Source of the DNA: Azolla caroliniana
Lineage: Eukaryota > Plantae > Polypodiophyta
Assembly (NCBI GenBank): GCA_043228905.1
Contig: JBHGNT010000009.1
Location: 8,990,001 to 9,054,000, forward strand
DNA length: 64,000 bases
Reading direction: 5' to 3'
The position numbers were made by a program, and so were the translations under genes. Under the pieces are notes generated by a model. That model did no database searches and had not been told where the DNA came from. It was given only the letters and a program-made list of their open reading frames with translations. Below, piece by piece: positions 34,609 through 64,000 of the stretch; position 1 is the stretch's first letter, and each line of letters begins with the position of its first letter.

Positions 34609-34648
<40 letters not shown>

Positions 34649-34823: not shown

Positions 34824-35972
34824 ATGGCTTCTGTTAGCGCCCAAGAATACCAATCCGTTTTCTCCGAGCTGCAGTGTCTAAAAGAAAATTGTGTTGCCTT
34901 GGAACAAGAAAACAAACGGTTGTTAGGGGATCTTCAACAAATCGCCCTAGAAAAACAACAAACGCAGCAACAACATGGGGAGTTGCAACAACAACATGGG
35001 GAGTTAGCGTTACGTGTGCAACAACTCGAAGCAGCGTTGCAACAACAAGGATCAGGTCCCCAAGGATTTCATAAAGAGCCCAAGATTGGACCTTCTGTGA
35101 AATTTGATGGAACGCAATCGCATTTTAGGGGATTCCTCAATCTAGTACGCTTAATCATTCAAATGCATCTATCTCGACACCCCACTAATGCATCCTGAGT
35201 CGGCCTAATAGGCACGTTGCTTAGCGGCTCAGCCTTGGCATGGTTTGCTCCACTTCTAGAAAAACAATTGCCCTTACTTAATAACTTTGAAGACTTTATT
35301 AGCGAGTTTAAAGCTTGCTTTGGAGATACAGACAACATCCGGACAGCGATCAACAAAATCCGACGATTGCGTCAAGGCGATCGTCCAACCTTTGCCTACG
35401 CGATGGATTTCCGTCTACTCGCTTCAAATATCCCTTGGGATGATCAGGCACTAATGGAGCAGTTTCGCTATGGCCTACGAAACGATGTCAAAGATCTACT
35501 TCTAACCTTCCCCGAAGAACCAAAGTCTCTTACGGAGGCAATCAGTCGAGCGGTCCAATGCGACAACCGCCTTTTCGAATGGCGTTCGGAACATCAATTA
35601 CAAATACCACACTCTAGGCCGGAGCCCACTTACGCCTCAGTCGCGGCTAAACCGTTTGCACGAGACATACCTCAAGAAAATACTCCGACACCGATGGAGA
35701 TCGACACCATGCGTCGACGTGGCCCCTTATCGGAAGAAGAAAAGCAACGACGACATGCAAATCGATTATGTCTTTATTGCGGTGGACCAAGGCATATCGC
35801 AATCAATTGTCCCCATAGGCCAAGAAGACAGGTAAATCAAATCGTAGCCTGTACTAAACCCGAGTCAATTCTTCCCTTAGGAGTGTCTGATAGTATTAAT
35901 AGTACTAATAGCCCAAGTATCTCAAATAAATTTGAAATTCTTAGGCAATTATATGAAGAGTTAAATGATTGA
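34824..35972 (+). pseudogene. gag: Chromovirus gag (coiled coil, capsid, CCHC), with one premature stop at 35196
   Basis: ORFs 34788-35198 and 35217-35972 are in the same frame; PEG10/sushi-like KFDGT, LRQG and PTPMEID motifs. Confidence 0.88.
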
Positions 35973-37253
35973 GTCTAGCCAAAATAGGAGCCGTTTGGTT
36001 GGACAGCCCTAGATCTGTACAACCCATTAGTGGTTCCATTCCCTCCAATCAAGTTAGCAATGTGTTTCTAGCCCAAGTCATGGTTAGTACTAAAAGTACT
36101 CCCCCAGCACACGTCCTAACACTTCTAGATTCCGGAGCTAATTCCTGTTTCATGGATCGAAATTTTGCCCAAGCTTCTTAGATATCCTTAAGAAAACTTC
36201 CTTGCCCCGCATCTATAGTAGTCATTGATGGTCATCCCATTGCTTCCAGGAATATTGTAGAAGAGTCAGAACCCATTCAAGTTGTCCTTGGTAGTTTTGT
36301 GTGTGTAGTATCATTTAATATAATTAGTAGTCCAGAGCATCCCATTGTCCTGGGATTACCTTGGTTTGAATTACATAATCCAGACATAGATTGGAGAACA
36401 AGAGAAGTCCGACATCGACAACCCCAAGAATCTACTCATCGAGTTTCAACCATTTCACTATGTCAATTACGCGAAGAAGGACACGAGGAGACAATGTTCC
36501 TATTTGCAATATCAGTACATCCTTCCAGCACTATTAAGAAGGAATCCTTAGTGCAACTACCGGAGAAATATCATCCTTATGCCGATGTATTTGACAAGGT
36601 AAAAGCCGGTACTCTTCCTCATCATCGTCCCTATGATTGTCCCATCGATTTACAACCAGGAGCAGAGCCACCATGGGGATCAATTTACAACTTGTCACCC
36701 ACCGAGTTAGAAGTCCTTCGAGCCTACATAGAGGAGAACTTGGCAAGCGGGTTTATTCGTCATTCGAAATCTCCGGCCGGTGCACCCATCTTCTTTGTCA
36801 AGAAGAAAGATGCTCACTTCGTCTCGTCGTTGATTACCGCGGCTTGAATAAAGTCACCATCCGAAATAGGTATGCACTTCCTCTTATATCAAGTCTTTTA
36901 GAGTGAGTTAATGATGCCAAGTTTTTTACAAAAATCAATCTACAAGGAGCTATAACCCCGTGCGGATCCGACCAGGAGATGAATGGAAGACTGCCTTTCG
37001 CACGTGGTATGGGCATTTCGAATATATTGTTATGTCGTTCGGTCTAACCAATGCACCCGCAGTCTTCCAACACATGGGAAATGATATATTCCAAGACCTC
37101 TTGGATATCTGTTTGATAATCTATCTGGATGATCTATTGATTTATTCGAAGACCTCGGAAGAGCACGATTCTCATGTACTATTAGTACTAAAACGACTCC
37201 GCGAGAATGGTCTTTATGCCAAGCTAGAAAAATGTAGCTTTGACTGCAAGCAA

Positions 37254-40200
37254 TGTTGGGTATGTGAGGAAGAGTGGGAAACACACAAGAAGCTCAAAGA
37301 AAGAAGCACTCACACAAGGAAGGCAATGGCTGGAATAGCTCTCTATTGATGAATGTTCCTAAAAAAATAGAAGCTGAAATATATATCCCTAAGTACTAAG
37401 TACCACCACATATGAGTGACTCATGTATGTGGTAACATGGGAAAAAACCTCTAGCCAGCACTAGAGTAAAAAGTGCCCATGTATAGGGAAAATGGTTCAC
37501 ATCAAAGCTACTAGAGGAACACGCAAGTGTAACAAACCCCCCTGGAGCGAATGATGTGAACATGTACAAGGAGTGACAGATCAGCCCCCACAAGGCAATA
37601 AGCCTAAAGCTTTGCGAAAAGCTTCAAACTTTTCTCGTGGAAGAGCTTTGGTGAATATGTCTGCCACGTTATCTTGTGTAGGCACATATACCAAATCAAT
37701 ATCTCCTGCATGAAAGCGCTCTCTCACATAGTGATAATGCACCTCAATGTGTTTGGTCCGTGCATGAAATACAGGATTTCGTGCAACAGCCAATGCACTC
37801 TGACTATCTGTGAGAATACGTGTAGCAACTTCAATCTCCATGCAAAGATCCATCAAAAGGCGTCTTAGCCATATACACTCCACTGTAGCTGTGAAAACTG
37901 CCCTGTACTCAGCTTCACAACTTGATGTCGCCACTGTAGGTTGCTTTTTACTCAACCAAGATATACATGAGTTTCCAAAGAAAAAGCAATTACCACTAGT
38001 GGACACGCGAGTATCATAACAACCAGCCCAATCACTATCTGTAAAAGCATGCAAGCATGGCTGAGTATCTCTGCCATAAAAGAGACCCAAGCTCAAAGTG
38101 CCTCTAAGATATCTGAACACACGTTTCACTGCTTGCCAATGCTTAGTGCCAGGGCTATGCATGAATCGACTCAATTGGGAGATTGCATACTGTATATCCG
38201 GCCTTGTATTGCATGCATATATAAGACATCCCACAGCTTGTTGATAAAGAGAAGTATCAAACGCATCACTAGAATCCTCAACAGAGAACCTAAATCCTGT
38301 CTCCACAGGTGTATAAACCGGCTTGCAATCCTCAAAGTCAAAACGCTGAAGTAGTTTTTCAACATACTTTCCTTGATGCATAAACATTCCCCCCTCAACG
38401 GATACAAACTGGATGCCAAGATAGTAGCTCAAAAGACCAAGATAAGTGACTTCAAAAGTATGCTGCAAATCAGCCATAAGAAAATCGAGTTTTGCATCAC
38501 ATGACCCAGTCAAGAGTATGTCATCAACATAAAGAACGAGCACTAGAAGATCAGCCCCATCTTTGCGTACATAAAGTGTGCTTTCAATCGGACTACATGT
38601 GAAGCCAAGAGAAATCAAGTGCTTATGGATTTTTTCATACCATGCACGCGGAGCTTGCTTGAGACCATACAAGGCCTTATGCAAGCGACAAACCATATGC
38701 TCTTTCTCTTTCGTAGCAAATCCAGGAGGTTGCTTCACATAAACCTCTTCTTGCAAATCACCATTTAAAAAGGCTGTTTTTATGTCCAATTGATGCATTT
38801 TCCAACCTCTTTGGGCAGCCAATGCAACCACGGTACGAATGGTAGTCATGCGTGAAGTAGGTGCAAAAGTTTCCTCATAATCAATGCCATATTGTTGGGC
38901 ATATCCTTTGGCAACCAATCTAGCTTTGTAGCGATCAATACTACCATCGGGCTTTCGTTTAATCTTGTAAACCCACCTAGTACCAATCACATTCTTTCCT
39001 TTTGGCAATTCACATAACTCCCAAGTACCATTTTTATGAATGGAATCCATTTCTGATTGCATAGCACTCATCCAATGTGGATCATCACATGCATCTTCAA
39101 AAGTAAGTGGCTCCTCATTACATGCTATTGCAACAATAGAATAATCCACAAAATTACCTGATGCATGGCGAGAGCTTGATCTTGTTTTACCAAGTAAAGG
39201 TGCACTCAATTTGCTATCTTGCAAAGTTTGTTTCAGCCACCTCGGCATAGTTTGTGACCTCTCGATAGCCATACGTTCATTATGTAATACATCTTCAATA
39301 TGTACATCATGCGTGGGCTGAATTTCATGCTCATTTTCAGCCACATTTGGTTGGACATTTCGTGCATTTTCAACACTTATTTGCTGGAAATTTTTATCCC
39401 TTTGAGACTCACTTGGCTGGTCTACATGTCCATGGTCAAGCGCAGCACTTTGGAACAAAGGCATGAGTGTATCAAACACATCTTGTGAGCTAACTGTTGG
39501 TTGTTTTTTGCATTCAAGAAAAGGGAAAGCTGAATTTTCAGCAAATACCACATCTCGACTCACAATAATTGTGTCCGTCAATGGATGATACAAACGATAT
39601 CCCTTACTTTCCGCACTATAACCAACAAATATGCATTTCTTTGCCTTGTCATCAAGTTTGTGACGTTGTTGTGATGGCACAAGAGCATATGCCAAACAAC
39701 CGAACACACGCATATGACTAAACATAGGTTTATGTCCATTCCAAGCCTCATATGGCGTAATGACTCTCAACGCTTTTGTAGGGCAACGATTCAACACATA
39801 ATTTGCACACATAACCGCTTCCATCCAAAACTTGTTAGGAAGATGCTTTCCTTTAACCATACATCGTGCCATCTCTAAGAGTGTTCTATTTTTGCGTTCT
39901 ACAACACCATTTTGTTGAGGTGTATATGGCACCGTACATTGATGTAAAATACCTCTTTCACAAAGAAAAGCATTAAACTCATGTGACATATATTCGCCAC
40001 CACGATCCGTGCGTAGAGTCAAGAGCTTATTTGCGGAAAAATTTTCAGCCATAGCTAAAAATGATTTGAAGCAAGAAAAGACTTCATTCTTTGCTTTCAT
40101 AGGATACACCCATGTATGACGAGTAGCATCATCAATGAAGGTAACAAAATATACATGCTTTCCAAAAGATGGAGTCTTTACAGGACCACACACATCACTA

Positions 40201-42419
40201 TGAACAAGTTGTAATTTTCTTGTAGTGTGTGTATGACTATCTTTTGGAAAGGAAGCACGATGCATTTTTCCAAGAATGCAACCTTCACATGCATGTTTTT
40301 CAATGGACTCAAGTGTAGGCAACCCAATAACCATATCCTTCTTTTGCAAGTGAAGCAAACTATTGAAGTTCAAGTGACCAAAACGAGCATGCCAAAGCTC
40401 CATTTCAGCCATGGAAGAAGTATGTACAGCCAAGGCATTTAGAGAAGCCCTCTTGTATGTATCTAAGCGGTACAAGCCATTGCATAATGTACCGGACATC
40501 ACGATAACATCACCATTGCTATAATCGTGAACCATGCACTTATCATCAACAAAATGTACATGAAGTCCGGCTTTGGCAATCAAAGGAACCGAAATTAAGT
40601 TCTTCTTAATACCGGGCACATACAATACATTCTTTAAGATGACAACACCTCCATTTGCAGCCGAAAGCTCAATTTCTCCTACTCCAATGATAGGATAAGA
40701 GGCATTGTTTGCACACACCACATGTCCACCTTTGGGTGCATCTTTCAAGGATGCAAAAAAACTTTTGCATGAAGTAATGTGCTTTGAAGCACCACTATCA
40801 AAGAACCAATCCGAATCAATCTCACTTACAACCATACATTTAGAGTGCAATGATGCATCATAATGATATGTAACAACACATGCCCAATAATCTTGAGCCA
40901 TGTTGGCCTCATCACTCTTTGCACTTGAAACATTTTCAGAAATGGTCATGCCGGATTCCTTCTTCTTCTCATTGCGCTTAACAAGCTTTCTACATTCTTC
41001 AATCGTATGGCCAACCTTTCGACAATATTTGCATCTTTTCTTCTTTTGCAAATCACCATCATTAGAGGAATAAGTGAAAGAGGGAGGTTGAGGCTTTGGT
41101 TTTGAAGAACCAAAAGCTGAACCATGCTTGCCTTTTCCTTTTTGTGAGATAGCAAGTGCTTGTGTTCCCTCTATCAAACCACTTCTATTCACTCTAGATT
41201 GTTCTTCTTGCAAAAGAAGAGACACAACCTCATCAAATGCGTACATATCCGTATTCCCTTTTGCAACCAAACGAATAGTAGTAGCAAAGCTTTGAAAAGA
41301 TTCGGGTAATCCTTTCAACAACGTAGAGACAAGTGATGTATTCGAAATGATCTCATCAATGTTTGCCAATTGCTCTTTCAAATCTTTAATGCGTGTCACA
41401 TACACATCTACCGACTCATTTTCAGCCATATATACATCCTCAAGTTGCTTTCTCAAATATGCAACACGTGCTTCGTTACGCACGGCATACAACGAAGCAA
41501 GAGTGTCCCATGCTTGTTTGGACGTAGAGCATGACCGAATATGTGGAACTATATGACGCTTCACAGAAAGTGCAATCAATGCATGAGCTTGAGCATCTTT
41601 TCCATCCCATCTAAGTTGCTCTTGTGTTGGTGGAGTAGATGAAGTCACTGTGCTCGAAGATGAACCTGTATCTGTGATAGTAGACTGTGAAGTAGTAGGA
41701 CCGGCGGGGCGTCGATCTACATCTACCACTATGTTCCATAGTTGTTTGGCAACAAGAACGTGTTTCATCATGTAGGACCACATTGGATAGTTTGTCCCAT
41801 CAAGCTTATCTTCAGCTTGAAGCATGCCAAACAAATCACCATTGTTTGCCATTTTACCAAAGAACAAGAAAGTGGTAAAATATTACCTCAACAAATCGGA
41901 AATGAGTGCTGAAAATGCAGCTCACAAACTATCACTCGGATGACGATTTCGACTACACGAACGGCTTCGAAATGGGGGTAAAACAGCAGGGTACCTGCTG
42001 AAAATGCGCTCCAAGTGCTGAAATACACTTCTCTATATTCGGAAGTTGATTTGCACAATGAAAAGTGCGCGCGCGCCGCGACACCGCGATGCGGACAACG
42101 GAAGATGGAGAGGATGAAGAACTTGGCTCTGATACCACTGTTGGGTATGTGAGGAAGAGTGGGAAACACACAAGAAGCTCAAAGAAAGAAGCACTCACAC
42201 AAGGAAGGCAATGGCTGGAATAGCTCTCTATTGATGAATGTTCCTAAAAAAATAGAAGCTGAAATATATATCCCTAAGTACTAAGTACCACCACATATGA
42301 GTGACTCATGTATGTGGTAACATGGGAAAAAACCTCTAGCCAGCACTAGAGTAAAAAGTGCCCATGTATAGGGAAAATGGTTCACATCAAAGCTACTAGA
42401 GGAACACGCAAGTGTAACA
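37254..42419 (-). mobile_element. Intact young Ty1/Copia element (5166 bp); LTRs 37254-37534 and 42139-42419
   Basis: Two 281-bp LTRs that read identical by eye, perfect 5-bp TSD AGCAA, iMet PBS TGGTATCAGAGCCA ending at 42137, PPT AGGGGGG next to 37535. Confidence 0.98.
37581..41852 (-). CDS. gag-pol: Copia Gag-Pol polyprotein, uninterrupted (~1423 aa from the first ATG)
   Basis: CKYCRKVGHTIEEC knuckle, protease FDSGAS, integrase HHCC and D,D(35)E (HSDV, TDRGGEY, VVERKNR), RT YVDD, RNase H TDSDWAG...KHIEVHYH...ADIFTK. Confidence 0.98.
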   Translation of the reverse strand: MANNGDLFGMLQAEDKLDGTNYPMWSYMMKHVLVAKQLWNIVVDVDRRPAGPTTSQSTITDTGSSSSTVTSSTPPTQEQLRWDGKDAQAHALIALSVKRHIVPHIRSCSTSKQAWDTLASLYAVRNEARVAYLRKQLEDVYMAENESVDVYVTRIKDLKEQLANIDEIISNTSLVSTLLKGLPESFQSFATTIRLVAKGNTDMYAFDEVVSLLLQEEQSRVNRSGLIEGTQALAISQKGKGKHGSAFGSSKPKPQPPSFTYSSNDGDLQKKKRCKYCRKVGHTIEECRKLVKRNEKKKESGMTISENVSSAKSDEANMAQDYWACVVTYHYDASLHSKCMVVSEIDSDWFFDSGASKHITSCKSFFASLKDAPKGGHVVCANNASYPIIGVGEIELSAANGGVVILKNVLYVPGIKKNLISVPLIAKAGLHVHFVDDKCMVHDYSNGDVIVMSGTLCNGLYRLDTYKRASLNALAVHTSSMAEMELWHARFGHLNFNSLLHLQKKDMVIGLPTLESIEKHACEGCILGKMHRASFPKDSHTHTTRKLQLVHSDVCGPVKTPSFGKHVYFVTFIDDATRHTWVYPMKAKNEVFSCFKSFLAMAENFSANKLLTLRTDRGGEYMSHEFNAFLCERGILHQCTVPYTPQQNGVVERKNRTLLEMARCMVKGKHLPNKFWMEAVMCANYVLNRCPTKALRVITPYEAWNGHKPMFSHMRVFGCLAYALVPSQQRHKLDDKAKKCIFVGYSAESKGYRLYHPLTDTIIVSRDVVFAENSAFPFLECKKQPTVSSQDVFDTLMPLFQSAALDHGHVDQPSESQRDKNFQQISVENARNVQPNVAENEHEIQPTHDVHIEDVLHNERMAIERSQTMPRWLKQTLQDSKLSAPLLGKTRSSSRHASGNFVDYSIVAIACNEEPLTFEDACDDPHWMSAMQSEMDSIHKNGTWELCELPKGKNVIGTRWVYKIKRKPDGSIDRYKARLVAKGYAQQYGIDYEETFAPTSRMTTIRTVVALAAQRGWKMHQLDIKTAFLNGDLQEEVYVKQPPGFATKEKEHMVCRLHKALYGLKQAPRAWYEKIHKHLISLGFTCSPIESTLYVRKDGADLLVLVLYVDDILLTGSCDAKLDFLMADLQHTFEVTYLGLLSYYLGIQFVSVEGGMFMHQGKYVEKLLQRFDFEDCKPVYTPVETGFRFSVEDSSDAFDTSLYQQAVGCLIYACNTRPDIQYAISQLSRFMHSPGTKHWQAVKRVFRYLRGTLSLGLFYGRDTQPCLHAFTDSDWAGCYDTRVSTSGNCFFFGNSCISWLSKKQPTVATSSCEAEYRAVFTATVECIWLRRLLMDLCMEIEVATRILTDSQSALAVARNPVFHARTKHIEVHYHYVRERFHAGDIDLVYVPTQDNVADIFTKALPREKFEAFRKALGLLPCGG

Positions 42420-45400
42420 AGCAAGTGGAATTTCTAGGCTACGTCATCTCCTCAAAGGGCATCTCCATGGATCCAGCTAAAGTCCAAACTGTGCTAGAGT
42501 GGCAAATTCCACGGTCGGTACGAGATGTACAATGTTTTCTAGGTTTTGCTAACTTTTACCGCAAGTTTATATAGGATTACTCGAAGATTATTTTACCTCT
42601 CACACAACTTACGAAGAAGGGACAAGTATTTCTTTGGTCCAATGAAGCGGACATGGCTTTTCGGCATCTTAAGAAAGCCTTTACATCAGCTCCTATTCTA
42701 GCTCATGTGGATACAAACAAATCATTCATCATGGAGGCCGACGCATCGGATTTCGCCCTCGGTAGCATCCTTTCTCAACAAGGAGATAAAGAAGAGTTAC
42801 ATACTGTGGCTTTTCATTCGCGCAAATTCGATGCCGCGAAAATCAACTACGAAATACATGACAAGGAGTTATTAGCCATCGTGGATTCCTTTGTGCAATG
42901 GCGGCATTTCTTAGAGGGCTCTCCACATCAGGTCATCGTCTTTAGTGATCACAAAAATCTTGCTTATTTCCAGAACGCTCGGGTGCTAAATCGACGGCAA
43001 GCTCGGTGGGCTCAATTCCTCACGCGTTTCGACGTCAAAATCACATATCGACCGGGGAAGCAGCAAGGAAAAGCAGATGCGCTATCACGACATTCATATC
43101 TTGCACCTCGTCTTGGTGATCCAACGTTTGATAATCAAAAGCAAGTAATCTTGGGACCAATACGATTGCACACAACGCGAATTTTTCACACCCCAATGGA
43201 TTCCCGGATTACCGATGCCATACGTGCGAACTTGAAGACAGACAATTTTGCTCAAGACATTCTGGCGCACATTGATACCTCTCGGGCATCCTGTTCCCAA
43301 TCTCAACAACCAGGTATGGACTACCAACATTTCAAATATCATGATGGTTTGTTATTCTTTGAAAAGCTTGTATATGTCCTCGATTGCTCCTGTCGCCTTC
43401 AAATTGTCCAAAATTGTCACGACACCCATACGGCGGGACATTTCAGTAGTACTAAGACGTTGGATCTCGTTCAACGATCTTTTTGGTGGCCCCATATGCG
43501 ACGTTTTGTCGACGACTACGTTCGGACTTGTGATGCTTGCTGTTGAGCAAAGATGCCCCGAAACCATCCATATGGCTTGTTGGAACCCTTATCGATTCCA
43601 AGTAAGCCGTGGTAGTCTATTTGCCTTGATTTTATCACAGATCTGCTGGTCTCGAAGGGGTTCGATGCTATCTTAACCGTCATCGATCGATATACCAAGA
43701 TGGCACATTTTGTGCCGTGTACTAAGGCCATCACTACCAAGGAAACCGCCGCCCTTGTCATGTGTGAGGTATTTCGGCATCATGGCCTCCCAGACAAAAT
43801 CATCAGTGACCGAGGACCTCAATTCGTCTCCAAATTTTGGCAGCATCTCTTCAAGATGCTCAAGGTCTCTTGCAACCTCTCCTCCGGCTACCATCCCCAG
43901 ACCGATGGGCAGGCAGAACGAACAAACCAAACGTTGGAACAATATCTCCGGTGTTTTCTGAGCTATCAACAAGACGATTGGGTCGAGATTCTCCACTTTG
44001 CGGAGTTTGCATATAATAATGTTGTTCACTCCTTGACTTGGGTTTCCCCATTTTACGCTTATACCGGTTCTCATCGTCGCTGGTCGGTGATCGACACCCC
44101 AGAGCTACCTACCAATCCTCGTGCCGAGGATCATTTGGAGAGGCTACACAAGATCCAGACAGATCTCTCTACTCATCTTCGTCATGCTCAACACACACAG
44201 AAGACTTATGTGGATCGTCATCGGCTTCCCTCCTCTTTTTCCATTGGAGATAGAGTATGGCTCTTACGTCGTCACATCAAGACTACTCGACCGTGCGACA
44301 AGTTGGATTATCGACGACTCGGTCCTTTCCGTATTACTAGTAAGGTTAATGATTTCACGTTCCGCCTTGATCTCCCTCCACATCTTCAAATACATCCGGT
44401 TTTCCATAGCTCTCTTCTTGAACCTTATAAAGCAAGCATCTTTAGATACATCCGGTTTTCCATAGCTCTCTTCTTGAACCTTATAAAGCAAACACTATTC
44501 CCGATCGTGTTACACTACCGCCGCCCCCGCTTGAGTTGGAAACCGGCCCGGAGTATGAAGTTGTTGCCGTCGTCGATTCCAAACTTGTTCGCAACAAACT
44601 TTATTATTTGGTCGATTGGCTCGGCTATAGTCCGAGCGAACGTACTTGGGAACCCGTTGAGCATGTCACCAATGCTCAGGATATTCTTGCTGAGTTCCAC
44701 CAAAAGTATCCAGACAAACCCAGTCCGCAATCAGCGCCGACTCGTTCCACTCGTCGTCCTAAGGGGGAGATAGTGTCATGATATGGCAAGACTCGAACCC
44801 ATGACCTTATGTTATATAGGTCGAGCTCTTGACCATTATACCATCTATTGTAATACGTAATATATTATTTTCATTTAAGTTTTATTATAGGAAATTAATG
44901 TATATTCCAGATTTCTCTGGAACATTCTACAAGCTTCAGGATTACTCCTGAGAACACTATAAAAGAAGGCACTAGGCATTATGTTAAACCAAATTGGCTC
45001 AACGCCAGTCTTAAGCCTCATAGCCATCTTGTACTTACTCTTCCTATAATATATCATCTGTTATCATCATCTCTCTCGCTCTCGTCCTCACTATATATCT
45101 CTCTCTCTCCTCTTCTTTTTTCTCTCTCTTAGGAGTCTTACGCAGTCCCGTCCTCTTAGTACTAATAGTACTTCCCTTCTTTAGTACTAATTCTCTCTCT
45201 GTTTTAATACTATTCCTGACACCTTACCCCTCTTTCTCCACAACAAATATTTAAAGCATTGCAAAACATAATGCAAATCCTTCTTTGTCCATGGTAGTAA
45301 TGAAAAATAATACAATATAATGGATTCCATATTACATTACACAACTACATATGAGGCATACATTAAATGGCCAAAATTACGACGTCTAATACATGAACTT

Positions 45401-47829: not shown

Positions 47830-48090
47830 GTAATCTCAAAGCGTTTATCTTGGGCTAGACTAGCGACAAACACAGGGTGTCCTTCCGAATCACTTCACCA
47901 AAGGGGTGGTTACGGGTAGGATGTTAACCGACACAGATATGATTCTAATCCGACTGTTTCCGGATCGGTTCTGGATTCGCCATATAACAACGATTGATTA
48001 ACACACATAAGATATACAAATTAAGTGCAGACGGTAAGTAGACAATATACACAATACTCAAATCCAAAAACAAGCTTATATTACTTCCGT
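47830..48090 (-). mobile_element. LTR fragment related to the LTR at 54306
   Basis: Shares AACACA.GGTGTC...CACTTCACCAAAGGGGTG.TTACGG with 54341-54386. Confidence 0.6.
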
Positions 48091-51341: not shown

Positions 51342-54305
51342 TGTTGTGGAGAAAACCGGCCTTAGGCGGAATCAGTGTAAAAGGTGCATGAATCAGCCCT
51401 TACGCGTGGGCACAAGTATTGATAAGTTGTATATAATTAGGAATAGGTCGGTTGATGTAAATATACTAGATAGTACACATTTATTAGCTAGGAAATCGAT
51501 GCGTATCTCTGTCCGAAGGGACAGGGAATAAAGATGATGTATTCAGGATGTGACGGCCCTTTGAGGCAGCCTATAAAAGAGAGGGGAGAAGGCCGAAACA
51601 GGTATCGTCTTTTGGCGAGGACAGAGTGTTGTCGGACTAGGGACCGATCTTTCTCCACCTCTATCGTTGTTCTCTACAGGTTTCTGGAACGGTTGCACCT
51701 GCTTCGAGGAAAGCCCGAGTGCTTCTAGCAGAGGCTCCACTGCGTGCATGCAAGTGTGTGCGTGTGTTAGGTCTGTTACCTGCGTGCCGGTTGTAATCTC
51801 ATGGGCGTTGTAACCCTTTATAGTTGGAATTAATTTCTAGTTCATTGTCTCTCTGTGTTTCTGTGTGTTTTCCCCTTCCAATGTCTGGTGGGTGTGCATC
51901 TCTGTTCGTTCTGTACACGCGATCGTGATTCATTTGGCCGGTAAGCGCTGCTTGCCGAAAGCCGGCGTCCGCTGGTTTGACGCTTGCGCTCTCCTCTCTC
52001 CCCTTGTTTCTTGCACTCCTTGGTCCAAGGCCTCCGTGGTCCCACCTTAGTTTCCTACGCGAGAGCGTAACAACACGACATATTTGGTGAACCCGACGTG
52101 AAACAAGGCGGCAAAGGAGTCGAAGATGAGGGGATCAGAGCTTGCCGAAGCCATGGCGACAACTGTTGATCGAATAGTAAGTGCTCGCGAGGGCACAGGC
52201 GCCCTCGATAGGGCCATCGAAGCGATTGTCAACACAATAGGCCGGTTAGTGGGAAGAACGCCACGAACTATTTAGAGGCCTACCAAGCCGAGATGGTGAT
52301 GAGGGACATCTCAGAGGACAGGCGGCTGGCTGGATTCCCTCGGGTGGCAACGTCGGGCATCCACGCAGAGGTGCTCAAGGTACAAGTTGGGTGCCGGAAC
52401 TGGGAAGAATTCGAAGGTTAGCTCCTCAAGAAGTACGGGCTCGATGACGCGCATCGGTTATCGAAGCGGGACTTCATGGAATGGGTGGAGACCCCCGGAG
52501 AGGGGAGGAACGCGTCGACGCGCCTCCGGGAGTTTGAGGAACGCTTCACGCGGTACTGGACAAGACCATGGTAGACACGAGCTGTGTCCTGTTGTTCGTC
52601 AAAGTGGTGGACGTGCGGGATCGGGATCAAGTGGTTAAAAGAGTCTGCAACCGTTTCGACAAGCGGCGTGAGTGGGGCGACGAAGGTTCGTCGTCGGCGA
52701 GACCCGTTCCGGCAAGGAAGTTCGAGGAACCTTCGCCGACACGAAAGGAGGAAACCCGGGATTGGCTTCAGACGAGCTCGACCTCGACCGGTGTGGTCAA
52801 GGGCCCATCTGGAGGAGCGGCTCTGGAAGAGTTGACTCAGATGGTGTGCGATCTCCAGATCGCGCAGGCCTGGAGAGACAACGGCGAACTGTCTCAGGAC
52901 CGGAGACCTCCGACAGGGCAGCGGTGCATGTGGTGTGACACGGTCGATCACATCCGGAAGGAGTGTGCTGACTTCGCAGAAGCACTGAGGACTAACGTTG
53001 TGTACCTGTGGAATGGGCGGGGGCACGCTAGTGCGACCCGGAAAGCCTCGGAGTTGAATACCGAGTGCCGCGGAATGAAGCGGCTGATGGAAGAAACCGC
53101 GGCGTGACACACTGAAGCCATTCACTACTCGGCATCGACCGGAATCTGAGTAGGGAGTGACGACAACAACAAAGGGACGAAGGACTCTGGATTCTGGCCA
53201 TCGGTGCTACGAGGCCTCTTTGGAGTAAGACTAAGGAAGGAGGAAAGGAACCGCGCGGAGAAGCGGATCCGGGAGGTTACCGGATGGGACGAACCGGTCG
53301 AGGAGAAGACCGGTTTCGTAGAAGCCGCGTGCTGGTGGAGGACAAGAGAGCAGGGAAGGCCGGGGGAGCCGGACCTTCAAAATGGTACGAGACACGGAGC
53401 GGACCGGGGAAGAACGATTCCGGTAGTTCCAGTCTGCAAGATCGGATGAAGCAGGCCGGTTACCGGTTGGGCACCGAGATAGAGAGGACGACGGACTTGC
53501 GAAATGTTGGTGGAAAGAGACTATTCGAGGTTGCACTGGGCTAGAGCCACTACGGAGACCCTCGTTCGGATCGGGGACGTCCAGGAGCCATTGGTGGCGT
53601 TGATAGACCACGGTTTCGAGATCAACCTAATGTCTATGGACTTCTATAAGAAGGGAAAGTGGCTGATCAACACCAAGCACGGGTGGAAGATACGCGTGGC
53701 AACGCGCGCCACGGAGGACCTGCACGGGACCTACCCGAATGTATGTGTGAAAATCGGCGATGTCGAGATTGACCAACACTTCTTCGTGCAAGAGACACCC
53801 TCGCACTCGATGATACTCGGTGAACCGTATATTACGGCGGCACGCATGGAGACAAAGGTGTTGGATAACGGTTCGGCATACGCACGCGTGAAGAGCCAAG
53901 ATGGATGACATTCCGTCCAATTTCTGACAATGCGACCGAACCATGAGCGTAACCGCGAGACCCTCGGCGGCGATAGTCAAGGGGATTTTTAGAGAGGGCT
54001 ATCAAGGCGTGGGGCCGCGATAGTCCGGACACCCCAGAGGAACCCCACACGTGTACCATTGGTAGGAAATTTTGGTTCTTCGACAATGGAGGTTGTACGA
54101 TAACCGACATTAGCGGTCAGGCAAAGAAGCGGGCAGAGGAACATCTCAGGGCATGCAAAGTCCTTGGCCCCGATGAGGAGATTAGCAGCACCGTGGAGGC
54201 AGTCTCTTTCAACAACACCTTGGGAGAATTAAGGAAGGCGCTCGAAGAAGGCCTCAGTGAAGACCAGACGATTCCAGTTTGTTCGGAAAGGATGTACGAA
54301 GCCAT
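51342..54305 (+). mobile_element. 5' part of a tRNA-Trp-primed Gypsy element (LTR 51342-52080, PBS 52085-52102, decayed gag and protease)
   Basis: LTR TGTTGT...ACGACA with TATA at ~51572. TGGTGAACCCGACGTGAA complements the plant tRNA-Trp 3' end as I recall it. CMWCDTVDHIRKEC knuckle; protease ALIDHG.EINLM. Confidence 0.85.
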
Positions 54306-54862
54306 TGTTGATGTTATTCCTTAGGGCCGGACAATGGCCTAACACAAGGTGTCTACGGAAGACACTTCACCAAAGGGGTGTTACGGCGAGATAACTTAAG
54401 ACTCAACGATTAATCAGACTTTAATTGGTTACTTAGCAATATGGCATTAGACTTGATACACGCGTATGATAAAACAATTAGCACAAAATGGTAATCAACA
54501 CTTAAAGATAAAAAAAGAAGCTCTATTAATTATCCGTCCCAGTTTTACATTATAACCGGGCCTTTATATAGGTCACCGGTGCTGAGTACAAAATGGTGCC
54601 AACCGGCACCTGTTCAGAACCGGTCCAGATCCGGATCGGCATACCGATTCCGGTCCGTCTGTTCACGTCTCATAAACTACTTAATTATAATAGATTCTGA
54701 ATATATTATCCCTTTCACATTCTAGTCTTTAACTCCTTTGCCGACCGGGTAACACATGGCACGCCCGTGGGATAGTACCTTGTACGTCGAATCCCACTAT
54801 CCGGCCCTTAGCCTTCGTCCAAGATATCCCGAATACTCTGCTCCAAGGTGTCCAATGGTTCT

Positions 54863-57339
54863 TCAGGAATCTGTTGTTGTTGTTGTGGCTGTGGCTGTTG
54901 CTTCGGCTCCGGCTCCTCCGACTGTTGCTCCTTGGGTGGCGTCTGTTCGACTCTTGGTACCGGCGGTGATTCCTCCGTTTGTTAGCATGTAGCAGTCGTC
55001 GCCATCCTTCTGCTGGTTTTTCGCGTCCGCCCTTAGCAACTGGAACTCAGCTGTGTGCTTTGCCCATTTGTCCCACCATTGCATGGAGCTTTCGTCAATC
55101 AAGCATTTTGTCTTGTTCCTCCATGCCTGGACAATGAACTGGATCTGCTCAAGTCCCATCTTCGATTTGTCCTCCGCGGCTTGCCGTTCTTCCTTCAATT
55201 GCTTGATCAGCTCCACCGTGTCCGCCTCCTGCTCCGGGTAATGTGACAATTGGTTTTGGTAGGTGTTCTGCAACCTCTGCAATACCATTGTCACTCTTTT
55301 CTTTTCTTCATAATGCTGCTTTTGGAGCTCCATACGTTCCTATGCGGCTTCCTCCAGTAGCGTTGTTCTTTCAGCCCGTTCTTCAGCTGGCACTGTCTCG
55401 GCTTGATGAACTTCCTGCCGGAGCTCTGCCATCTTCTCTTGCTGCTTCTTATGCTCCGTATCCAGGTGCTTATAGTCCTGGTGTAGGTGCTCAAAATCAT
55501 CGGTCTTCTACTTCAGCTTCTGGTTGAGTTGCCGGCGAGCGCGGTTTTCCCGATCTTTCTGTTGACGGAGTTCTTCTTTAAGTCTTTCAATCTCCGTTTC
55601 TGCCATCCATCGCAGCTTATCCTTTTCTTGCAACACTTTCTCTTTCTCCTCCTTAAGCCGGTCATATGCCTAATGTCCTTTCCGCAGATTCTCTTATGCC
55701 CGGCGGAAGCTCTGAATAGTCTTTCTTTGTTCTTCTTCTGCCACTTTCTTCAAGTCCCTTTCTCGGGTGCGTAATGCTTCTTGTGCGGCCAGTTCATCTT
55801 TCAATTCGGCAAGCTCTTTCGCTTGCGCCGCCACTGTCTCCGGGACTGGTTCCGTCTCTGGTGTCTTATTACTATGCACAGGTGCTGGTGTGTCGTTATT
55901 ATGTACATCTACCGGAGTCACCGGTGCTTGCATATGTGGTTTGGTTAAGGCCATTTTGGCCAATTCCTCTGTGGCTAGGTCCAAGTCTTGTTCTAGGCTC
56001 TGGATCCTTGACCGGGCCGTCTCTAGTTCTCCGGGTGTGACTAGCAACCAGTCCATCTGTGCTTTCTCTTCCGCCTCTATGTAGTGCACCACTCCAGCAA
56101 TCTGTTCTCCAACCCACCGGAGCCATTGGCTGCCGGTGCCCTGTTGTTGCGTCTGCACGGAGGGTTGGCTGTTGGTTCCACTAGCCAGTGGTCGGTCTCG
56201 TCCGGTGGCGTCGAGCTGCAACTTTGTCTCTGGTTGGTGACCACTTTGCCATTCTGGTTCCAATTGCATCTCCGTTGGCCGCTCCTCCTCTGATTGTTGT
56301 TGACCTGCCGGTGGGGGAGGCAACTATACTCCCGACGCTTGAATTTCGGGTCTTGCCATATCCTGACCCGCCGATATAGCTTGTTGTGCAGGGAGCTTTG
56401 TGACCGGTTTCGGTTCCACCCTTGGTGCGGGATGCTCGGTGCGGGTTAGAGGCGTTCCATCCTTCTTTGGGTCTGAACGCTCCCCGGCCAGTTCTGCGGT
56501 GCTTGCCTTTTGGCGCCGCTGGAGGTGCTCTAACGGTTCCTCCTCTGCTTCCTCCTCCTGAGTCCCGAAGTTGATTTTTGCTGCCAAGGGGTTCGGCTCT
56601 TGTTGAACCGGTCGGTGAAATCTGATCTTGATTGGCCGTGCCGGTGTCTCCTCTTGCGTTTCTACCAACCGCTTGCTATTGGCGTGCTCTTTTGCCGCCT
56701 TGTCCGTGTCGGCCGCCTTCCCTTTGGGTGCCTTAGAGGTCAACAACTGTTGTCATTTCGAAGCCGTTTTCGGGGTGCCTTTGGTCGTTCTCCCCCACTT
56801 CGTGGTCTTGACGGGCTCAATAGGTGGTGCCAATAGGGTGAGCCACTGCGCCACTATAGTTCATATTTTCCGACCCTCCTCGCCTCTTACAGAATTGATG
56901 GCCGCACAGAGGCCGTCCGCAATCAGTACCGGCCAGTCCACCTTCACGCCTTCATACGTTGCTATGACTAAGCCGGCTCGGTTTTGAGGCATGCACGGGG
57001 GTCGAGGGTATACATGTCCAAATTCATGGCGCACACGAGCAATCTCTCTAAATAATGTATCTTCGCCGCCCTATGTCCTGTAGGCCTTGTTGGCCAGAGA
57101 GTATTTGCCAAAATATTTTTGGAGCTGCTCCGGGGTAGGGTTCTCGATAGTGAAGATGCCCCCCTCCGGAAGGCCATCAAAGCATGGATGGCCTCCTCTG
57201 TGATCAGCTCTATGTCGATTTCCTTTACTATCTTCTCCGCCTCCCGGTGCGGTGGCGCCTCCATGATCGTGAGGAAACCTTCTAACCCGTGTTACCTTAG
57301 CCACTTCTTGGCTGCTTGAGAGAGTGCTTGGCAGTCCAT
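54863..57339 (-). pseudogene. Extra 3' ORF of the Gypsy element (~2.5 kb, degenerate): globular N-domain, low-complexity linker, coiled-coil C-terminus
   Basis: Chain of same-strand ORF pieces (56968-57264, 57071-57457, 56324-56746, 55694-56323, 55291-55500, 54863-55333) from the ATG at 57339. Confidence 0.7.
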
Positions 57340-57767
57340 GGCTTCTTCGAGGTTGGTGAGCGCTGGTGAGGGATGTGTGTGAGGAGGCTCTGTGTGCGTG
57401 GGCTCGCGTCTGATGATCTTCAATCACTTGTCTACGTTTGTGCTCCTCTGTTCGCAAAATGTGAAGACCTCTATGCGGTGGGGGTTTTCTTGCTGCATGT
57501 TGGCGCCTGTTTTTCTTTCCCGCACGTGTGCACGTCGTGTACTAGAATAGAATGAAGTGCCATGTGGTGGCGGTTTAATACGCTATTAATAGCCCACTAC
57601 GTACCTTTTCAAAGTGCCTGTTCACTCCTTGTTCTTGCATGTGTCCGTTCACACCTCGCCCTTGCATGATTTACTTTTATTTGATTTGATTTGTTTTTTT
57701 ATTTTTAATAAAACTGTTTGGTTAATTCGCATCCGGTCCCACTGGACCCCTATCCGAATTGTGGGAC

Positions 57768-60710
57768 TTACCGGCCGATTGATTGCGCGTCGTTCTTGCC
57801 ATTTGCCGGCTCGTGCTCCCTCTTACCGGCTTCGCGCTTGCCATTTGCTAAACGTGTTGCCGTCTCTTCCGACTTATCGGTATTTGGTTCTATGTCGGCC
57901 TTTACTTGTTCAAATGGGTTTCTTGGCATGGGTCCATTGTATGGTTTGAGTCGGAACCCATTGACCCATTTACCCAGAACCTTGCCGGCGAGTGTCCCTA
58001 ACTGGTAGGAACCGTTGAACTCACGCGTGATCCAGTATGGCCCGGTCCACCGAAACCGTAGCTTCCCCGGCATCTTACCCATCCGGATCTGGAATACTAG
58101 TACCGGTTTACTGATTCCGAACATCTTTTCGTTCCCTTTTCGGTGACGATCCACGAACGTTTTCCTTCGCCGCTGCTCAAGTTCGAGGTGCATGATGCTG
58201 GCTAGCCGGTGTTCTTCCAATTCGCACAACGCGGCTAACAGGATCGCTTCTAATTCCTTCTCATTTAGGCGTTCCCGAATCTGTATTCGTAAACTCGGTA
58301 CCTAGAACTCGACCGGCATCACTGCCTCCAATCCGAATGCTAGGCGAAACGGTGTTGTGCGGATACTTGTCTTATATGCCGTTCGATAAGCCTAGAGTGC
58401 ACTGTGTAGCTTTGTATCCCAATCCGTCCGGTTCTCATTGACGATTTTTCGAAGGATGTTCTGTAGTGTTTTATTTGTTGACTTGGCTAATTTGTTGGCT
58501 TGCGGATAATAGGGAGTGCTCCATTTATGCACCACCGCATAGAATGTCGTCAAACTTTCCACCACTTGCCCTAAGAAGTGGCCACCTTGGTCACTTATTA
58601 GCTCTATTGGACATCCATACCGGCACCAGATGTATTCATATAAAAAATTTGCCGTTGATGCCACGGTGTTGTCGCGTAGTGCTTTGGCTTCCACCCATTT
58701 TGTGCAATAATCCGTAGCGACAATCACGTACCGGTTGCCGGTTCTCATTGTTGGTGGTTTGAATGGACATACAAAATCCAGTCCCCATTTCTGAAATGGT
58801 TCTAACGGTAGCACGGGCTGGTGAGGCATCCTGGCTTGTTTGGTTGGTTGGCCCATTCGTTGACATAGGTCACATTCTTTAGCGTACCGGATTGCATCCT
58901 TCAATGTTGTTGGCCACCATAGTACACTCTGCCATATTTTCCTTGCCGTAGCGTCTCCGGCATAATGTCCTCCAGCAACTCCGTAGTGTGCTTCGCGCAA
59001 TATTATGTCCTTTTCGTCGCTGCGCACTGCACGCCGCCATATGCCATCCGCGCCTTTGTGGTACAATGTGTCCTGTAATAGAAAGAAGTGTCGGCTTTGA
59101 ACAGCTAAGCGTTTCCTCTCGTCTCTGTTCATCTCCTCCGGAGGTAAGCCGGTGCTCAGAAATTGGTGCATGTTGGTGAACCACTTGTCTTCCTCTGCGA
59201 CCGTACCATCCGTTGTCGTTTCTGCTGTGACTCTAAATAGCTCTGCATCCGGGAAATCGTTTGGGACGCCGTCACCGGTTTCGCCGAAATCTAACCAGCT
59301 CAAATAGTTTGCTACTGCATGTTGTATGCCGGGTCCGTGGAATCTCTCGAACTTGAATTCTTGTAATAGTAACGTCCACCGGGCCAACTTATCAGTGAGT
59401 GATGCTTTGGACACCAAATAGAGGAGCGCCGAATGATCTACGTGAAAGGAAAATTTCCTTCCCAACAGATAGTGTCTAAACTTGGTGACACTGTAGATCA
59501 TGCCCAAGGCCTCTCTTTCCGTTGTGGAATAATTACGTTCTGCTTGGGATAGCTTCCGACTGGCATAATACACTGGCCGGTACCACTTCGGTTCTGTAAG
59601 TTGCATAAGCGCGCTCCCGATTGCGATGTCGGGCGCGTCAACGAACACATGGAACTCTTTAGACCAATCCAGAGGTTGCACCACCGGTGCTTGTGACAAT
59701 AGTACTTTTAGTTCCCGGTAAGCTTTGTCTTCTGTGTCCGTCCATTGGAACGGTGTCCAATGTACCGCAACATGCAATGGTGTAGCCAGGTTTGCCAAAT
59801 ACCAGAGCATTCGGCTGTGCCACCGAATTTGTCCTAAGAACCGGCTTAATGCCGGTGCCTCCAAAATAGCTTTGACCTTGTCCGGATCCACTACAATACC
59901 GTCCTTGCTGACAATGTGGCCAAGTAACGCTCCGCTGGACACTCCGAACACGCATTTTGCCGGGTTAAGGCTTAGCCGGTAAACCCTACATTTCTCCAGA
60001 CATAGTCGGAGGTGCTGAAGGTGATCCCCTTCTCGGCTATAAACAACGAAGTCATCCAAGAACACCTGCATGAATGCTAGAATGAATTCTTTGAAAATCT
60101 CCATGATGATCCGCTGGAAAGTTGTCGGTGTTGTTTTCAGTTCGAACATCATAACTACAACAACAAAGACTCCCCATTCGGTGACAAAAGCGGTTTTCTC
60201 CTGGTCGTCGGGGTGCATCCGGATCTGATTATAGCTGCTGAAACCGTCTAGAAAACTGTACACCTCATGACCTGCGACCGCATCCAAGACTCCATCCATG
60301 AATGGAAGTGGAAAGGCGTTCGTTACCGTAGCCGCATTCAATTTCCGGTAGTCGACGCAAACTCTTGTCTTATCGTTCTTTTTTGGAACTACGACTATCG
60401 GACTGAGCCATGTGGCTTTTTTTACCGATCGGATGAGGCCAACCCTTAGCAACTTGTCAATTTCTTCTTTGACTTTTGCTGCGTAATTCGGGTTCATCCG
60501 GTAACGTCGTTGCACTACCGGTTTGGTGTCTTTACTCAGATGTATCTAGTGTTGATACAACCGAGGATTGAGTCCCCGCATGTCCTCATAGGACCAGGAG
60601 AACACATCGCGAAATTCTTTTAGGAGTGTGATCATTGCCGTTTTGTTCTCCGGGGTCATTTCCTTGGCGATGTGAACCGGTCTTGCGTCCTCTATGGTAC
60701 CTAGGATTAC
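57768..60710 (-). pseudogene. pol: Gypsy pol (RT-RNase H-integrase) with few disruptions
   Basis: WLSPIVVVPKK, CVDYRKLN, FLDD, YYASRKL...NYSTTERE, H..GGH...CDLCQ, WGLDF, SDQG, RWTGPY. Confidence 0.92.
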
Positions 60711-63700
60711 TGTTGGGAGACAGGTCCCTCCGGATGGGAAGGGAGAAAAACAGTGCCGGATGAACAAACTCGGCCGAGGCCGAAACCGTATGAGGAGGAC
60801 CCGGCTACGGAGAGCCGGATGGTACAGGCCCGGTATGAACCGGATGAGGAGTACCCTGCTACGGAGAGCCAGATGGTGGAGGCCCGGTATGAACCGGATG
60901 AGGAATACTCGGCTACGGAGAGCCGGATGGTGCAAGCCCGGTATGAACCGGATGAGGAGTACTCGGCTACGGAGAGCCGGATGGTGCAGGCCCGGTATTA
61001 ACCGGATGAGGAGTACCCGGCTACGGAGAGCCGGATGGTGCAGGCCCGGTGTGAACCGGATGAGGAGTACCTGGCTACGGAGAGCCGGATGACGCAGACC
61101 CGGTGCGAATCGGAGGAAGAGACATATTCGTAAATATGTTTCTAAGAGCCCATCGAGGCTACATTTGTAAATAGCCGAAAAGTCATATTAGTATAAATAT
61201 GACTTAGGGCAAACTTTATGTGTTGTTGTCATTTTTCCTTGTTGGTGCAAGAAGAAGAGAGAGTGCGTAATTGTACAGAGAGAGAGAGAGAGACGAGGTC
61301 ATTGCCTCTGTTGTAACCGCCGCCTGTGGCGAAGATCTATGAGCACGAGGTCGTTGCCTCAGTGAACTCACTGTTGTATATTCCTACATAGTGACAGTTT
61401 GCAGCCTGTGGGCTGCCGTGGTTTTTCCCCTAGTTTGGGGTTTTCCACGTAAACCTCCTGTGTATTCTCTCCTTCTTTGTGTCGCATTTTATTTCTCGTT
61501 TTTTTGTGTATCATTCTAACCTCGGTTGTGGCCGAGCGTTGCGCATAAAGAACGTTGCGTTCCCTACAAGTGGTATCAGAGCGAAATCGACACAGAAAAT
61601 GGACGAATCGTTTGGGGGCATGTTCAAGCTCACCGGCTCCAACTATTTAGTGTGGAAGTCGAAGATGAGGGACATGCTTGTTGTTAAAGACCTTTGGCTG
61701 CCGGTTCAGTTCGGGGACAAGAGACCGAACAAAATCGACGCCGCGATATGGGAGGTGATGCACATGAAGACAACGGCGTACATACGGTGCTTCATTGACA
61801 TGAGCCTATACAACAACTTCAATGAAGAGAGCAAGGCTCATGAGCTCTGAGAGAAGATCGGCATAATGTTTCAGAACAAAAATGCTGTCAATCAGGTGTC
61901 GGTATTCCGGAAGCTAGTAAGACTCCGGTACCAAGATGGCTCCAGCATGGCGGAGCACATGAATGCCTTCCAGGGGCTAATCCACCAGGCAACTTCATTG
62001 GAAGTACCTCTCGCGGATGAGGTACTAGCGCTGCTCCTGCTCGGTTCCCTCCCGGATAGCTGGGAGATGTTGGTTGTCACATTGGGCAATGCCAGGCCGG
62101 AAGGAAAACGGCTATCCCTAGCAAGAGTAAAGTCGAGCTTACTAGATGAGGAGGCGCGTCGGAAAGATAAAGATACGAGCTCCGACTCCAAGGCGCTCCT
62201 TACCGAATCGGAACGCGGAAGACATAGAAACCATAGTCCCCAGAACCGGGAGAAGTCGGGGACACGGTCAAAGTCAAGGGGGAGGCCCACTTGCTTCTAT
62301 TGCGGCAAACCGGGTCACTTCCAAAAGAACTGTCGGCATTTCCGTAAAGACAAGGAAACCGACAGTACCGATTCGAAGCAAACCCCGGATCGGAACGGTA
62401 AAGACCGGAGAGGGCCGGACCGGAAGGGAACGACGGCAATCGCGGCAAGTGAAGAAGAGTTGATGCTCATCACCGAGGAGAGTGAGATAAACCTTGCCGG
62501 CGACGAGATGACCTAGGTGGTAGACTCCGGAGCATCGTTCCATCTTACCCCGGACCGGAAATGCTTCTCATCCTACTCAGCTGGTGATCACGGCTGTGTC
62601 TGGATGGGGAATGAAGGTACATGCCGAATTGTCGGCATAGGAGACGTGTGGCTGTCGACACCAACCAGATGCAAGTTGCTGCTGAAGGATGTACGACACG
62701 TTCCGGAGGTTCGACTGAACTTGATATCAGCCGGTCGGCTAGATGATGAAGGCTACACGGGTAGCATCCGGAACGGTGTCATGAAATTCAGCAAAGGTAG
62801 CTTGATTGTGGCTCGGGCCCGGAAGGTAAACACACTGTACCTGATGAATGCCCGGTTATGTCCGGAAGAAGTGAACGTGGCATCCGACACTGCCGGTGAG
62901 CTGTAGCACAAGAGACTGTGTCATATGAGCGAGAAGGGGATGAAGAGGCTTGCAGACGACAACCTCATTCCAGTAAAGAACGTGCACTTAGAGAAGTGCA
63001 TTGATTGTCTGGCCGGTAAGCAGAACCGGACCTCTTTCCGACCAAGGCCACCGATGAGACGTAATGCACCACTGGAGTTGGTGCATACGGATGTGTGTCA
63101 AGTAGACACGAAGTCACATGCCGGAGCGCAGTACTTCGTGACGTTCATAGATGACCACAGCCGGAAGCTGTGGGCCACACCGTTGAAGACGAAGGATCAG
63201 GTGTTATCTGTCTTCAAAGAGCTCCACGCGAGAGTGGAAAGAGAAACCGGCCGGAAGCTGAAGGCGGTTCGAGCAGATAACGGAGGAGAGTACCGGGGGC
63301 AGTTCGAGGAGTACTGCTGCTCGAAGGGAATCCGGCTCGAATTTACCGTGCCGAAGATGCCGGAACTAAACGGACTGGCCGAGAGGATGAACCGGACCAT
63401 AATGGAGAGGGTCCGGAGTATGCTAGCGCATGCAAAACTACCCAAGAAGTTTTGGGCTAAGGCACTGTCGACGGCGACATATGTGATAAATAGATCACCC
63501 TCAGTACCCTTGGACGGAGACACGCCACAGAGAGTGTGGACCGGTAAGGAAGTATCCTACCGGTATCTGAAGGTGTTCGGGTGTCTCGCGTACGTGCATG
63601 TAGCTAAGGACCGGAGAGGAAAGCTAGATCCAAAGACCCGGCCATGCATATTCCTCGGTTACGGTGACGATGAGTTTGGCTATCGAGTGTGGGACCCGGT

Positions 63701-64000
63701 CGACAAGAAGGTATTCCGGAGTCGAGATATTATCTTTATGGAGAACAAGACGCTCGCCGACTGGGAGTCGGAGAAGAAGATAATGAACTCCGAGTCGACC
63801 GGTAAGGATCGACTCTACGATGAGCAAACCCAACCGGCAAGAGACCGGTTAGCACTTGAGGGACCAGACGGTTACGGTGAGGACACCGAACGGGCTGAAG
63901 AAGAAGTAGAGGAAGCTGAAACCGGAACCGACCAAGACCCCGAATCGGATTTGGATGAAGAGCAGATGGATGAGCCGGTCACCGAAGCCCAGAGAGAGAA
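60711..64000 (+). mobile_element. Ty1/Copia element C (5' LTR 60711-61568, PBS 61571-61582, gag-pol from ATG 61599, runs off the window)
   Basis: TGTTGGGA...CTACA followed by AG and TGGTATCAGAGC; CFYCGKPGHFQKNC, VDSGAS and integrase ADNGGEY; in-frame stops at 61848, 62514 and 62904. Confidence 0.95.
60783..61106 (+). repeat. Six tandem 54-bp repeats inside the Copia C LTR (U3)
   Basis: Unit GAACCGGATGAGGAGTACCCGGCTACGGAGAGCCGGATGGTGCAGGCCCGGTAT. Confidence 0.95.

Follow-up and report, generated by a model that had tools for sequence, protein, structure and literature searches.

The window, by which we mean the whole 64-kb stretch of DNA analysed here, is filled by a nest of plant LTR elements. 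On its minus strand lies a Gypsy element whose broken pol (57768–60711) comprises reverse transcriptase (RT), RNase H and integrase (Pfam RVT_1, RT_RNaseH, Integrase_H2C2 and rve), in the RT-RH-INT order of Gypsy. A Pfam search of 57768–58301 returned no family, and the absence of a chromodomain after the integrase indicates that the element is not a chromovirus; an additional RNase H is absent from pol both between RNase H and integrase and after the integrase. Downstream of pol is a broken, coiled-coil-like extra ORF (54863–57541, minus strand) without a Pfam family, followed by a tRNA-like site and by the element's sole LTR within the window, at 54312–54754 (minus strand; 443 bp, TGTTA...TAACA). 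Because a Copia element (60712–64000, plus strand; LTR start near 60712, PBS TGGTATCAGAGC near 61571) has inserted in pol, the opposite end of the Gypsy element, with gag and the 5′ LTR, is hidden. The Gypsy element itself was received by a host Gypsy element, whose LTR, PBS and gag-pro remains occupy 51344–54311 on the plus strand, a span that includes 54306–54311. The host element carries a PBS, TGGTGAACCCGACGTG, about 11 nt past its LTR; we take this PBS to be Trp-like, which would fit the Phygy group.

Elsewhere in the nest, a Tcn1-like Gypsy element (34317–45237) has LTRs that are 92% alike and contains a Copia element (37244–42420) whose LTRs, 99.6% alike, and unbroken 1433-aa frame point to a recent insertion. 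The LTR of the Copia element in pol (60712–61570) holds about six 54-bp tandem repeats, and a related Copia stretch, inverted and 76% alike, occurs at 2–1253. Two MITE-like elements with long terminal inverted repeats lie at 20215–21137 and 30491–30727. The motif CACTTCACCAAAGGGG, with neighbouring hairpin-like bases, is found at 54365–54381 in the Gypsy LTR and again at about 47892–47908, in an LTR-like stretch among Copia remains.

The edges of the Gypsy LTR were taken from contig depth, for which unselected contigs of four runs (three organism labels, three studies) were aligned to 54150–55050. The depth of LTR-family contigs begins at 54310–54312 in all four runs, and contigs of the host-element family extend up to 54305–54312. 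This places the left edge at 54312, 6 nt from the 54306 given in a preliminary description of this DNA, whose assignment of the repeat as a 3′ LTR stands. All 15 LTRs examined (the window LTR plus 14 from 12 loci) bear the motif TAT[AT]TAAA on the ORF strand and none bears it on the opposite strand; in the window it lies at 54561–54572 (minus strand), 185 nt from the LTR start. The window LTR is a 3′ LTR because this TATA-like motif stands on the ORF strand. Sequence and Pfam matches confirm that pol, the extra-ORF remnants and the motif are all on the minus strand, as had been described.

No polypurine tract (PPT) stands at the inner edge of this 3′ LTR, again as first reported: the longest purine run on the ORF strand in the adjoining 25 nt is 3, whereas two control LTR elements in the window (34317–45237 and 37244–42420) have ordinary purine tracts with longest runs of 10 and 7. 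Among the matches listed (24 of 951 loose-end rows), no purine tract was seen behind the LTR. What adjoins the LTR is a site complementary to tRNA-Arg(UCU), with a 2-nt spacer (54755–54756, minus strand), constant in length and variable in letters, separating the tRNA-like CCA end from the start of the LTR. From the LTR outwards, the site consists of the complement of the tRNA 3′ end, an insert, and a stretch complementary to the T-loop and the 5′ side of the T-stem. Box 1 (54757–54773, plus strand) includes TGGCACGCCCGTGGGA at 54757–54772, 2 nt from the LTR, and is the complement of nt 59–76 without nt 66, tRNA positions being numbered by the standard tRNA layout. The 13-nt insert (54774–54786) has a 4-bp stem and a 3-nt loop (GTAC-CTT-GTAC, 54775–54785) and falls between tRNA positions 58 and 59. 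Box 2, TCGAATCCCAC at 54787–54797 (plus strand), complements T-loop and 5′ T-stem bases (nt 49–58), with one extra base in this copy. Further from the LTR is a D-arm-like sequence, GCCTTCGTCCA, at 54811–54821 (plus strand). All four motifs lie where the preliminary description placed them.

Measured against two reference tRNA-Arg(TCT) genes, one from a phage and one bacterial, which may differ from the host's, the site complements 17 of the last 18 nt of the tRNA-Arg(UCU) 3′ end, nt 66 being the one missing. Both references were retrieved with a wider site-derived pattern, at one viral locus (L001) and one prokaryote-genome locus (L002), and were called tRNA-Arg(TCT) by ARAGORN; the phage gene (L001 9998–10091) is 94 nt long, its long variable arm being uncommon among arginine tRNAs. 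In a free local alignment, site and tRNA scored a borderline 28.5, a value that 2 of 3456 window tiles reached, with shuffle maxima of 27.5 and 29. Anchored at the LTR edge, the match has a chance of about 6e-8 (a rough product of base frequencies). The main case for the site is its constant position across families, rather than the alignment score.

Three boxes matching tRNA-Arg had originally been proposed, and two of them, the acceptor/T-stem box and the T-loop box, are upheld. We rejected the D-arm box as a tRNA match and find it unsupported as a component of the conserved site: against the two reference genes, 45% and 61% of 2000 shuffles score equally high, and contig depth drops 14- to 31-fold past 54800 in the four runs. 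A tRNA gene or full tRNA mimic was likewise considered and rejected, as neither ARAGORN nor Rfam gave a cloverleaf with an acceptor stem; ARAGORN found no tRNA gene in the window and Rfam no tRNA match within 54600–55000.

In the contigs of the four runs, depth over 54770–54800 is 0.62, 0.87, 0.79 and 0.63 of that in the best-conserved LTR bin, where contig depth is not equivalent to copy number. The site plainly travels with much of the window's LTR family. Position 54773 is C in 87–90% of the depth in all four runs, so that a tRNA match lost by the window copy is restored in its sisters. In much of the family (contigs and locus L017), an 8-bp inverted repeat extends around the site, and would compete with tRNA binding.

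Loose contig ends before 54312, numbering 19, 28, 17 and 10 in the four runs, provide a view of the far LTR. On the ORF strand, their majority lines read LTR end, CAGTTTT and TGGCGACC in two runs. A PBS can be read clearly in two of the four runs, nearly so in one and weakly in one, with an agreement of 0.43–0.53, as would be expected of loose ends mixed with random flanks. Judged by these majority lines, the far LTR of the window family appears to have an ordinary sense PBS, and the tRNA end it corresponds to is unlike that of the inverted site. Ends of this type occur in three phage tRNA-Arg genes among 15 viral pattern matches; all three tRNA genes among those matches are Arg(TCT).

A metagenome scan with the site pattern gave 25 matches in 24 loci. 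Two loci (L014 and L015), with a GC content of 65–66% and no LTR, were set aside as chance matches, which left 23 element-type matches in 22 loci. Eleven assemblies, probably of a single campaign given their near-consecutive ids, supply the 22 loci, and LTRs can become merged when short reads are assembled. Since the pattern fixes 24 letters of the site, site conservation is built in, compensatory change in the T-stem is invisible and PPT-bearing relatives are excluded. Nucleotide 66 is absent from all 23 element-type sites, though the pattern permitted it. The LTR starts exactly 2 nt from the site in 23 of 23, after the spacers GG, AG, TA, CG and TG, and opens with TGTT in 22 cases and GGTT in one; with partial and decayed copies counted, the 2-nt spacing recurs in 27 of 27 occurrences, which bears out the spacing first noticed in the window. 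By BLAST linkage, the LTRs behind the sites fall into eight groups, some of them short singletons. Six of the 22 loci have a same-sense homologue of the extra ORF upstream of the site, and pol was found in none of the 22. A 604-aa frame in L026 and a 286-aa frame in L010 match no Pfam family. Viral contigs contained no match to the site pattern, and protein-led scans of them found no relative.

Seven of these loci, belonging to one LTR family, contain both ends of the internal region: the 5′ side reads LTR end, 2 nt, TGGCACGCCC, and the inverted site stands at the 3′ LTR, 1.8–3.6 kb downstream of this sense PBS, which matches tRNA-Arg(TCT) ends. L024 runs from a plain-flanked 5′ LTR and the sense PBS through an internal stretch to the site and then a 3′ LTR that is truncated, and two LTR starts that are free of the site (L024 at 1353, and L009) behave as 5′ LTRs. 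The far-LTR comparison suggested in the preliminary description thus yielded a normal PBS together with conserved boxes, that is, two primer sites, in seven contigs of one sister family and, by majority loose ends, in the window family. The far LTR has this PBS in place of the plus-strand PPT that antisense replication had been predicted to leave there.

Several features of the sister loci are recorded here in their own right. The 5′ PBS of the sister family (L024 1686–1700 and six further loci) matches the tRNA end for 10 nt, shorter than the inverted site, and PBS and site appear to share one tRNA end. Site, LTR and PBS follow in series in L003, L004, L009, L018, L020 and L023, like head-to-tail arrays sharing one LTR, in a family without pol; these may be real tandems or merged repeats of short-read assembly. 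None of the 22 loci showed an element that combines two complete LTRs with a target-site duplication.

Base pairs within the site were counted in an alignment of 14 rows, the window and 13 of the 22 loci. The 4-bp stem of the insert is paired in 98% of cells, and three of its four pairs change on both sides. Its covariation score, 0.212, was reached by 0 of 500 shuffles, though relatedness alone, with no structure, can outdo this control; slid controls scored 0.016–0.057. G-U cases in the stem lie at likely deamination sites and are uninformative on which strand folds. In the would-be T-stem, whose 3′ side is fixed by the pattern, the outer two pairs are unpaired in 7 and 5 of the 14 rows. As the insert stem covaries and the outer T-stem pairs are lost, pairing in trans fits better than a folded mimic. 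A 5′ acceptor strand was absent upstream of the site in the aligned sister-site rows, and the insert interrupts the 7-nt T-loop, which makes the site RNA a poor tRNA mimic. A covariance model from the alignment retrieved one site in the window, the known locus sites, and weak matches on 5′ PBSs and two tRNA genes; being built from the same alignment, it adds no independent support.

Co-folding of the proxy tRNA 3′ end with the minus-strand site predicted one and the same junction, with bulge and hairpin, in 10 of 11 sites: 10 bp, a one-base bulge, 7 bp, a looped-out hairpin and further T-arm pairing, at −50.8 to −58.2 kcal/mol under RNA parameters applied to an RNA:DNA hybrid. The sense strand alone adopts a predicted fold that varies by family, at −14.5 to −23.5 kcal/mol.

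To judge from sequence, then, the PPT is replaced by an inverted, structured tRNA-Arg site across several LTR families. Our main reading, to which we assign a probability of roughly 0.6, is that this lineage lacks a PPT and that a second host tRNA likely anneals at the inverted site and primes the plus strand. Minus-strand synthesis would start on a tRNA at the 5′ PBS. Once RNase H had cleared the RNA template, tRNA nt 67–76 and 59–65 would pair with box 1, with nt 66 bulged, while the 13-nt insert would loop out as a hairpin beside A58 and nt 49/51–58 would pair with box 2. Extension from the CCA end would copy the 2-nt spacer and then the LTR, and removal of the tRNA by RNase H would leave a 2-nt end for integrase to trim. 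A CCA primer end 2 nt before the LTR matches the geometry known for PPTs and for the trimming of ends by integrase. The m1A58 modification is described as lacking the ability to form a Watson-Crick pair (in the available part of PMC13191261), and this pairing block may account for the break at 58/59. Of the two-primer scheme originally put forward, the sites themselves stand, a sense PBS beside the 5′ LTR and the inverted one next to the 3′ LTR; that a host tRNA is the primer at the second is what we infer.

We also lean, slightly, towards a broader proposal: that a whole clade of Gypsy elements of seed-free plants is without a PPT, both strands being primed by host tRNAs through a purpose-shaped three-way junction on minus-strand DNA (bulged nt 66, hairpin at A58), so that the two ends would be functional mirror images and, at its most extreme, copying could use either RNA strand.

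The primer might instead be the element's own RNA, if the tRNA-like stretch with its hairpin survived RNase H and was cut after the CCA, a non-purine PPT that RT would treat like a tRNA end. We regard this as possible but doubtful. Such a primer would account for the identical position and 2-nt spacing and render a second annealing step unnecessary; the sense strand can fold, at the energies given above, and many members of the window's family have the 8-bp stem extension. Ty3 RNase H, moreover, picks its primers partly by hybrid geometry, according to a portion of PMC5371799. However, about 27 nt of tRNA identity, including a T-loop that lies past the insert, would go unexplained, the 5′ PBS of the window family appears to correspond to another tRNA end, and the sense fold differs across families and has no acceptor-stem partner. 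We favour priming by a host tRNA because the long tRNA identity continues past the insert while the intramolecular T-stem is lost, and because the site has no acceptor partner and is independent of the type of 5′ PBS.

Replication from a packaged RNA that is antisense to the ORFs, or from either strand, would turn the site into an ordinary extended PBS for the minus strand, and the plus-strand junction does resemble a textbook LTR-PBS; the ends of the sister family, too, are mirror images (LTR end, 2 nt, TGGCACGCCC), with the inverted site as the longer match. The strict confinement of the TATA-like motif to the ORF strand in the 15 LTRs speaks against this, as does the far LTR, which bears a PBS and is without a purine tract on the opposite strand. 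Antisense replication would therefore still need a tRNA-type second-strand primer and restores no purine tract, and we consider it unlikely. We think it very unlikely that the site has another job, such as closing the RNA by base-pairing to the 5′ PBS or serving as a small-RNA target or decoy, while a purine-poor RNA fragment that has escaped recognition starts the plus strand. The sense copy of the sister family is indeed complementary to the 10-nt 5′ PBS, but the 5′ PBS of the window family differs from the site, and the CCA end stands 2 nt from the LTR in every one of the 27 occurrences, as a primer end would be expected to do. A single end of the element is present in the window, amid a nest of insertions. 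The preliminary description named a breakpoint between 54830 and 57768 as one finding that would undo its proposal, the LTR and PBS then belonging to a separate plus-strand element joined to a pol fragment by recombination or inversion. This we judge extremely improbable: extra ORF, site and LTR recur in the same order and sense in six other loci with different LTR groups, which excludes a breakpoint private to the window copy, strand composition is steady from 54712 to 57500, and LTR polarity agrees with pol.

The arrangement was not known to have been described, and the literature searched, mostly non-subscription papers and excluding the per-element tables of PMC6317226, contained no report, in the portions available, of an inverted tRNA site replacing a PPT. 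The site letters gave only unrelated matches among the matches listed (20 of 124). As stated in the available text of PMC5371799 and PMC13191261, the rule for retroviruses and LTR retrotransposons is that a tRNA primes the first strand and a polypurine tract the second. If our main reading is correct, a high-copy natural lineage breaks this rule, and its RT would be able to start on a DNA-bound tRNA and remove it precisely. Transposition would then be tied to two tRNA pools, with tRNA-fragment control acting at the second site as well, and there would be a reason why annotation tools that rely on a PPT overlook these elements or place them in reverse.

Metagenome proteins, with up to 91% identity, are the best relatives of the element's proteins; among named ones, liverwort proteins (about 45%) come first and angiosperm and fern proteins next, so that the host is probably a seed-free plant. 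In a midpoint-rooted RT-RH tree of 105 sequences, built from 120 matches listed plus the window and with no labelled references, the RT groups with metagenome proteins and, more loosely, with liverwort and fern proteins, apart from the angiosperm matches and from two matches that bear an additional RNase H. Its domains would place the element near Athila or Tat Z1/Z2, as a non-chromovirus Gypsy without an additional RNase H in pol. With these groups, as described in the available parts of PMC6317226, PMC13468544 and PMC10508981, it shares the lack of a chromodomain, an extra ORF after pol and a non-Met PBS, and those parts mention neither a missing PPT nor an inverted tRNA site for Athila or Tat. 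Like the window pol, the Tat Z1/Z2 'zero' clades have no additional RNase H, according to the same portions; moss Tat B has one upstream of gag, whereas the regions visible in the window are those between RNase H and integrase and after integrase. Athila also lacks an additional RNase H in pol, as the window element does by Pfam and tree, but its PBS is mainly of the tRNA-Asp/Asn type in the available part of PMC6317226, whereas the PBSs found here are Arg-like, matching tRNA-Arg(TCT) ends in the sister family and an end found in phage tRNA-Arg genes in the window family. Phygy elements, for which the same part of PMC6317226 gives a tRNA-Trp PBS in 81% and no extra ORF, differ from the present Gypsy element in both respects, as it has an extra ORF and an Arg-like PBS.

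Sequence derived from tRNA or rRNA also occurs inside LTR elements in the non-autonomous Cassandra and Helenus/Ajax, whose captured 5S or tRNA-like motifs are said to assist transcription (available portion of bioRxiv 10.64898/2026.03.01.708851); the present site, in contrast, lies outside the LTR, at the position of the plus-strand primer. With Ty3 the element shares LTRs, RT-RH-INT, a tRNA-primed minus strand at the 5′ PBS and a plus-strand primer position just upstream of U3, but Ty3 uses an RNase H-resistant 12-nt PPT where we find a tRNA-complementary site on minus-strand DNA (Ty3 as covered in part of PMC5371799). The split pairing resembles the bipartite PBS of Ty1 and Ty3, where a single tRNA binds two segments through its acceptor stem and its T-arm, the segments being split in Ty1 by a small internal loop and one of them lying near the 3′ end in Ty3 (same part of PMC5371799). 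Whereas those segments lie on genomic RNA and serve minus-strand priming, the site described here has the opposite orientation, so that it can bind a tRNA only on minus-strand DNA or on antisense RNA.
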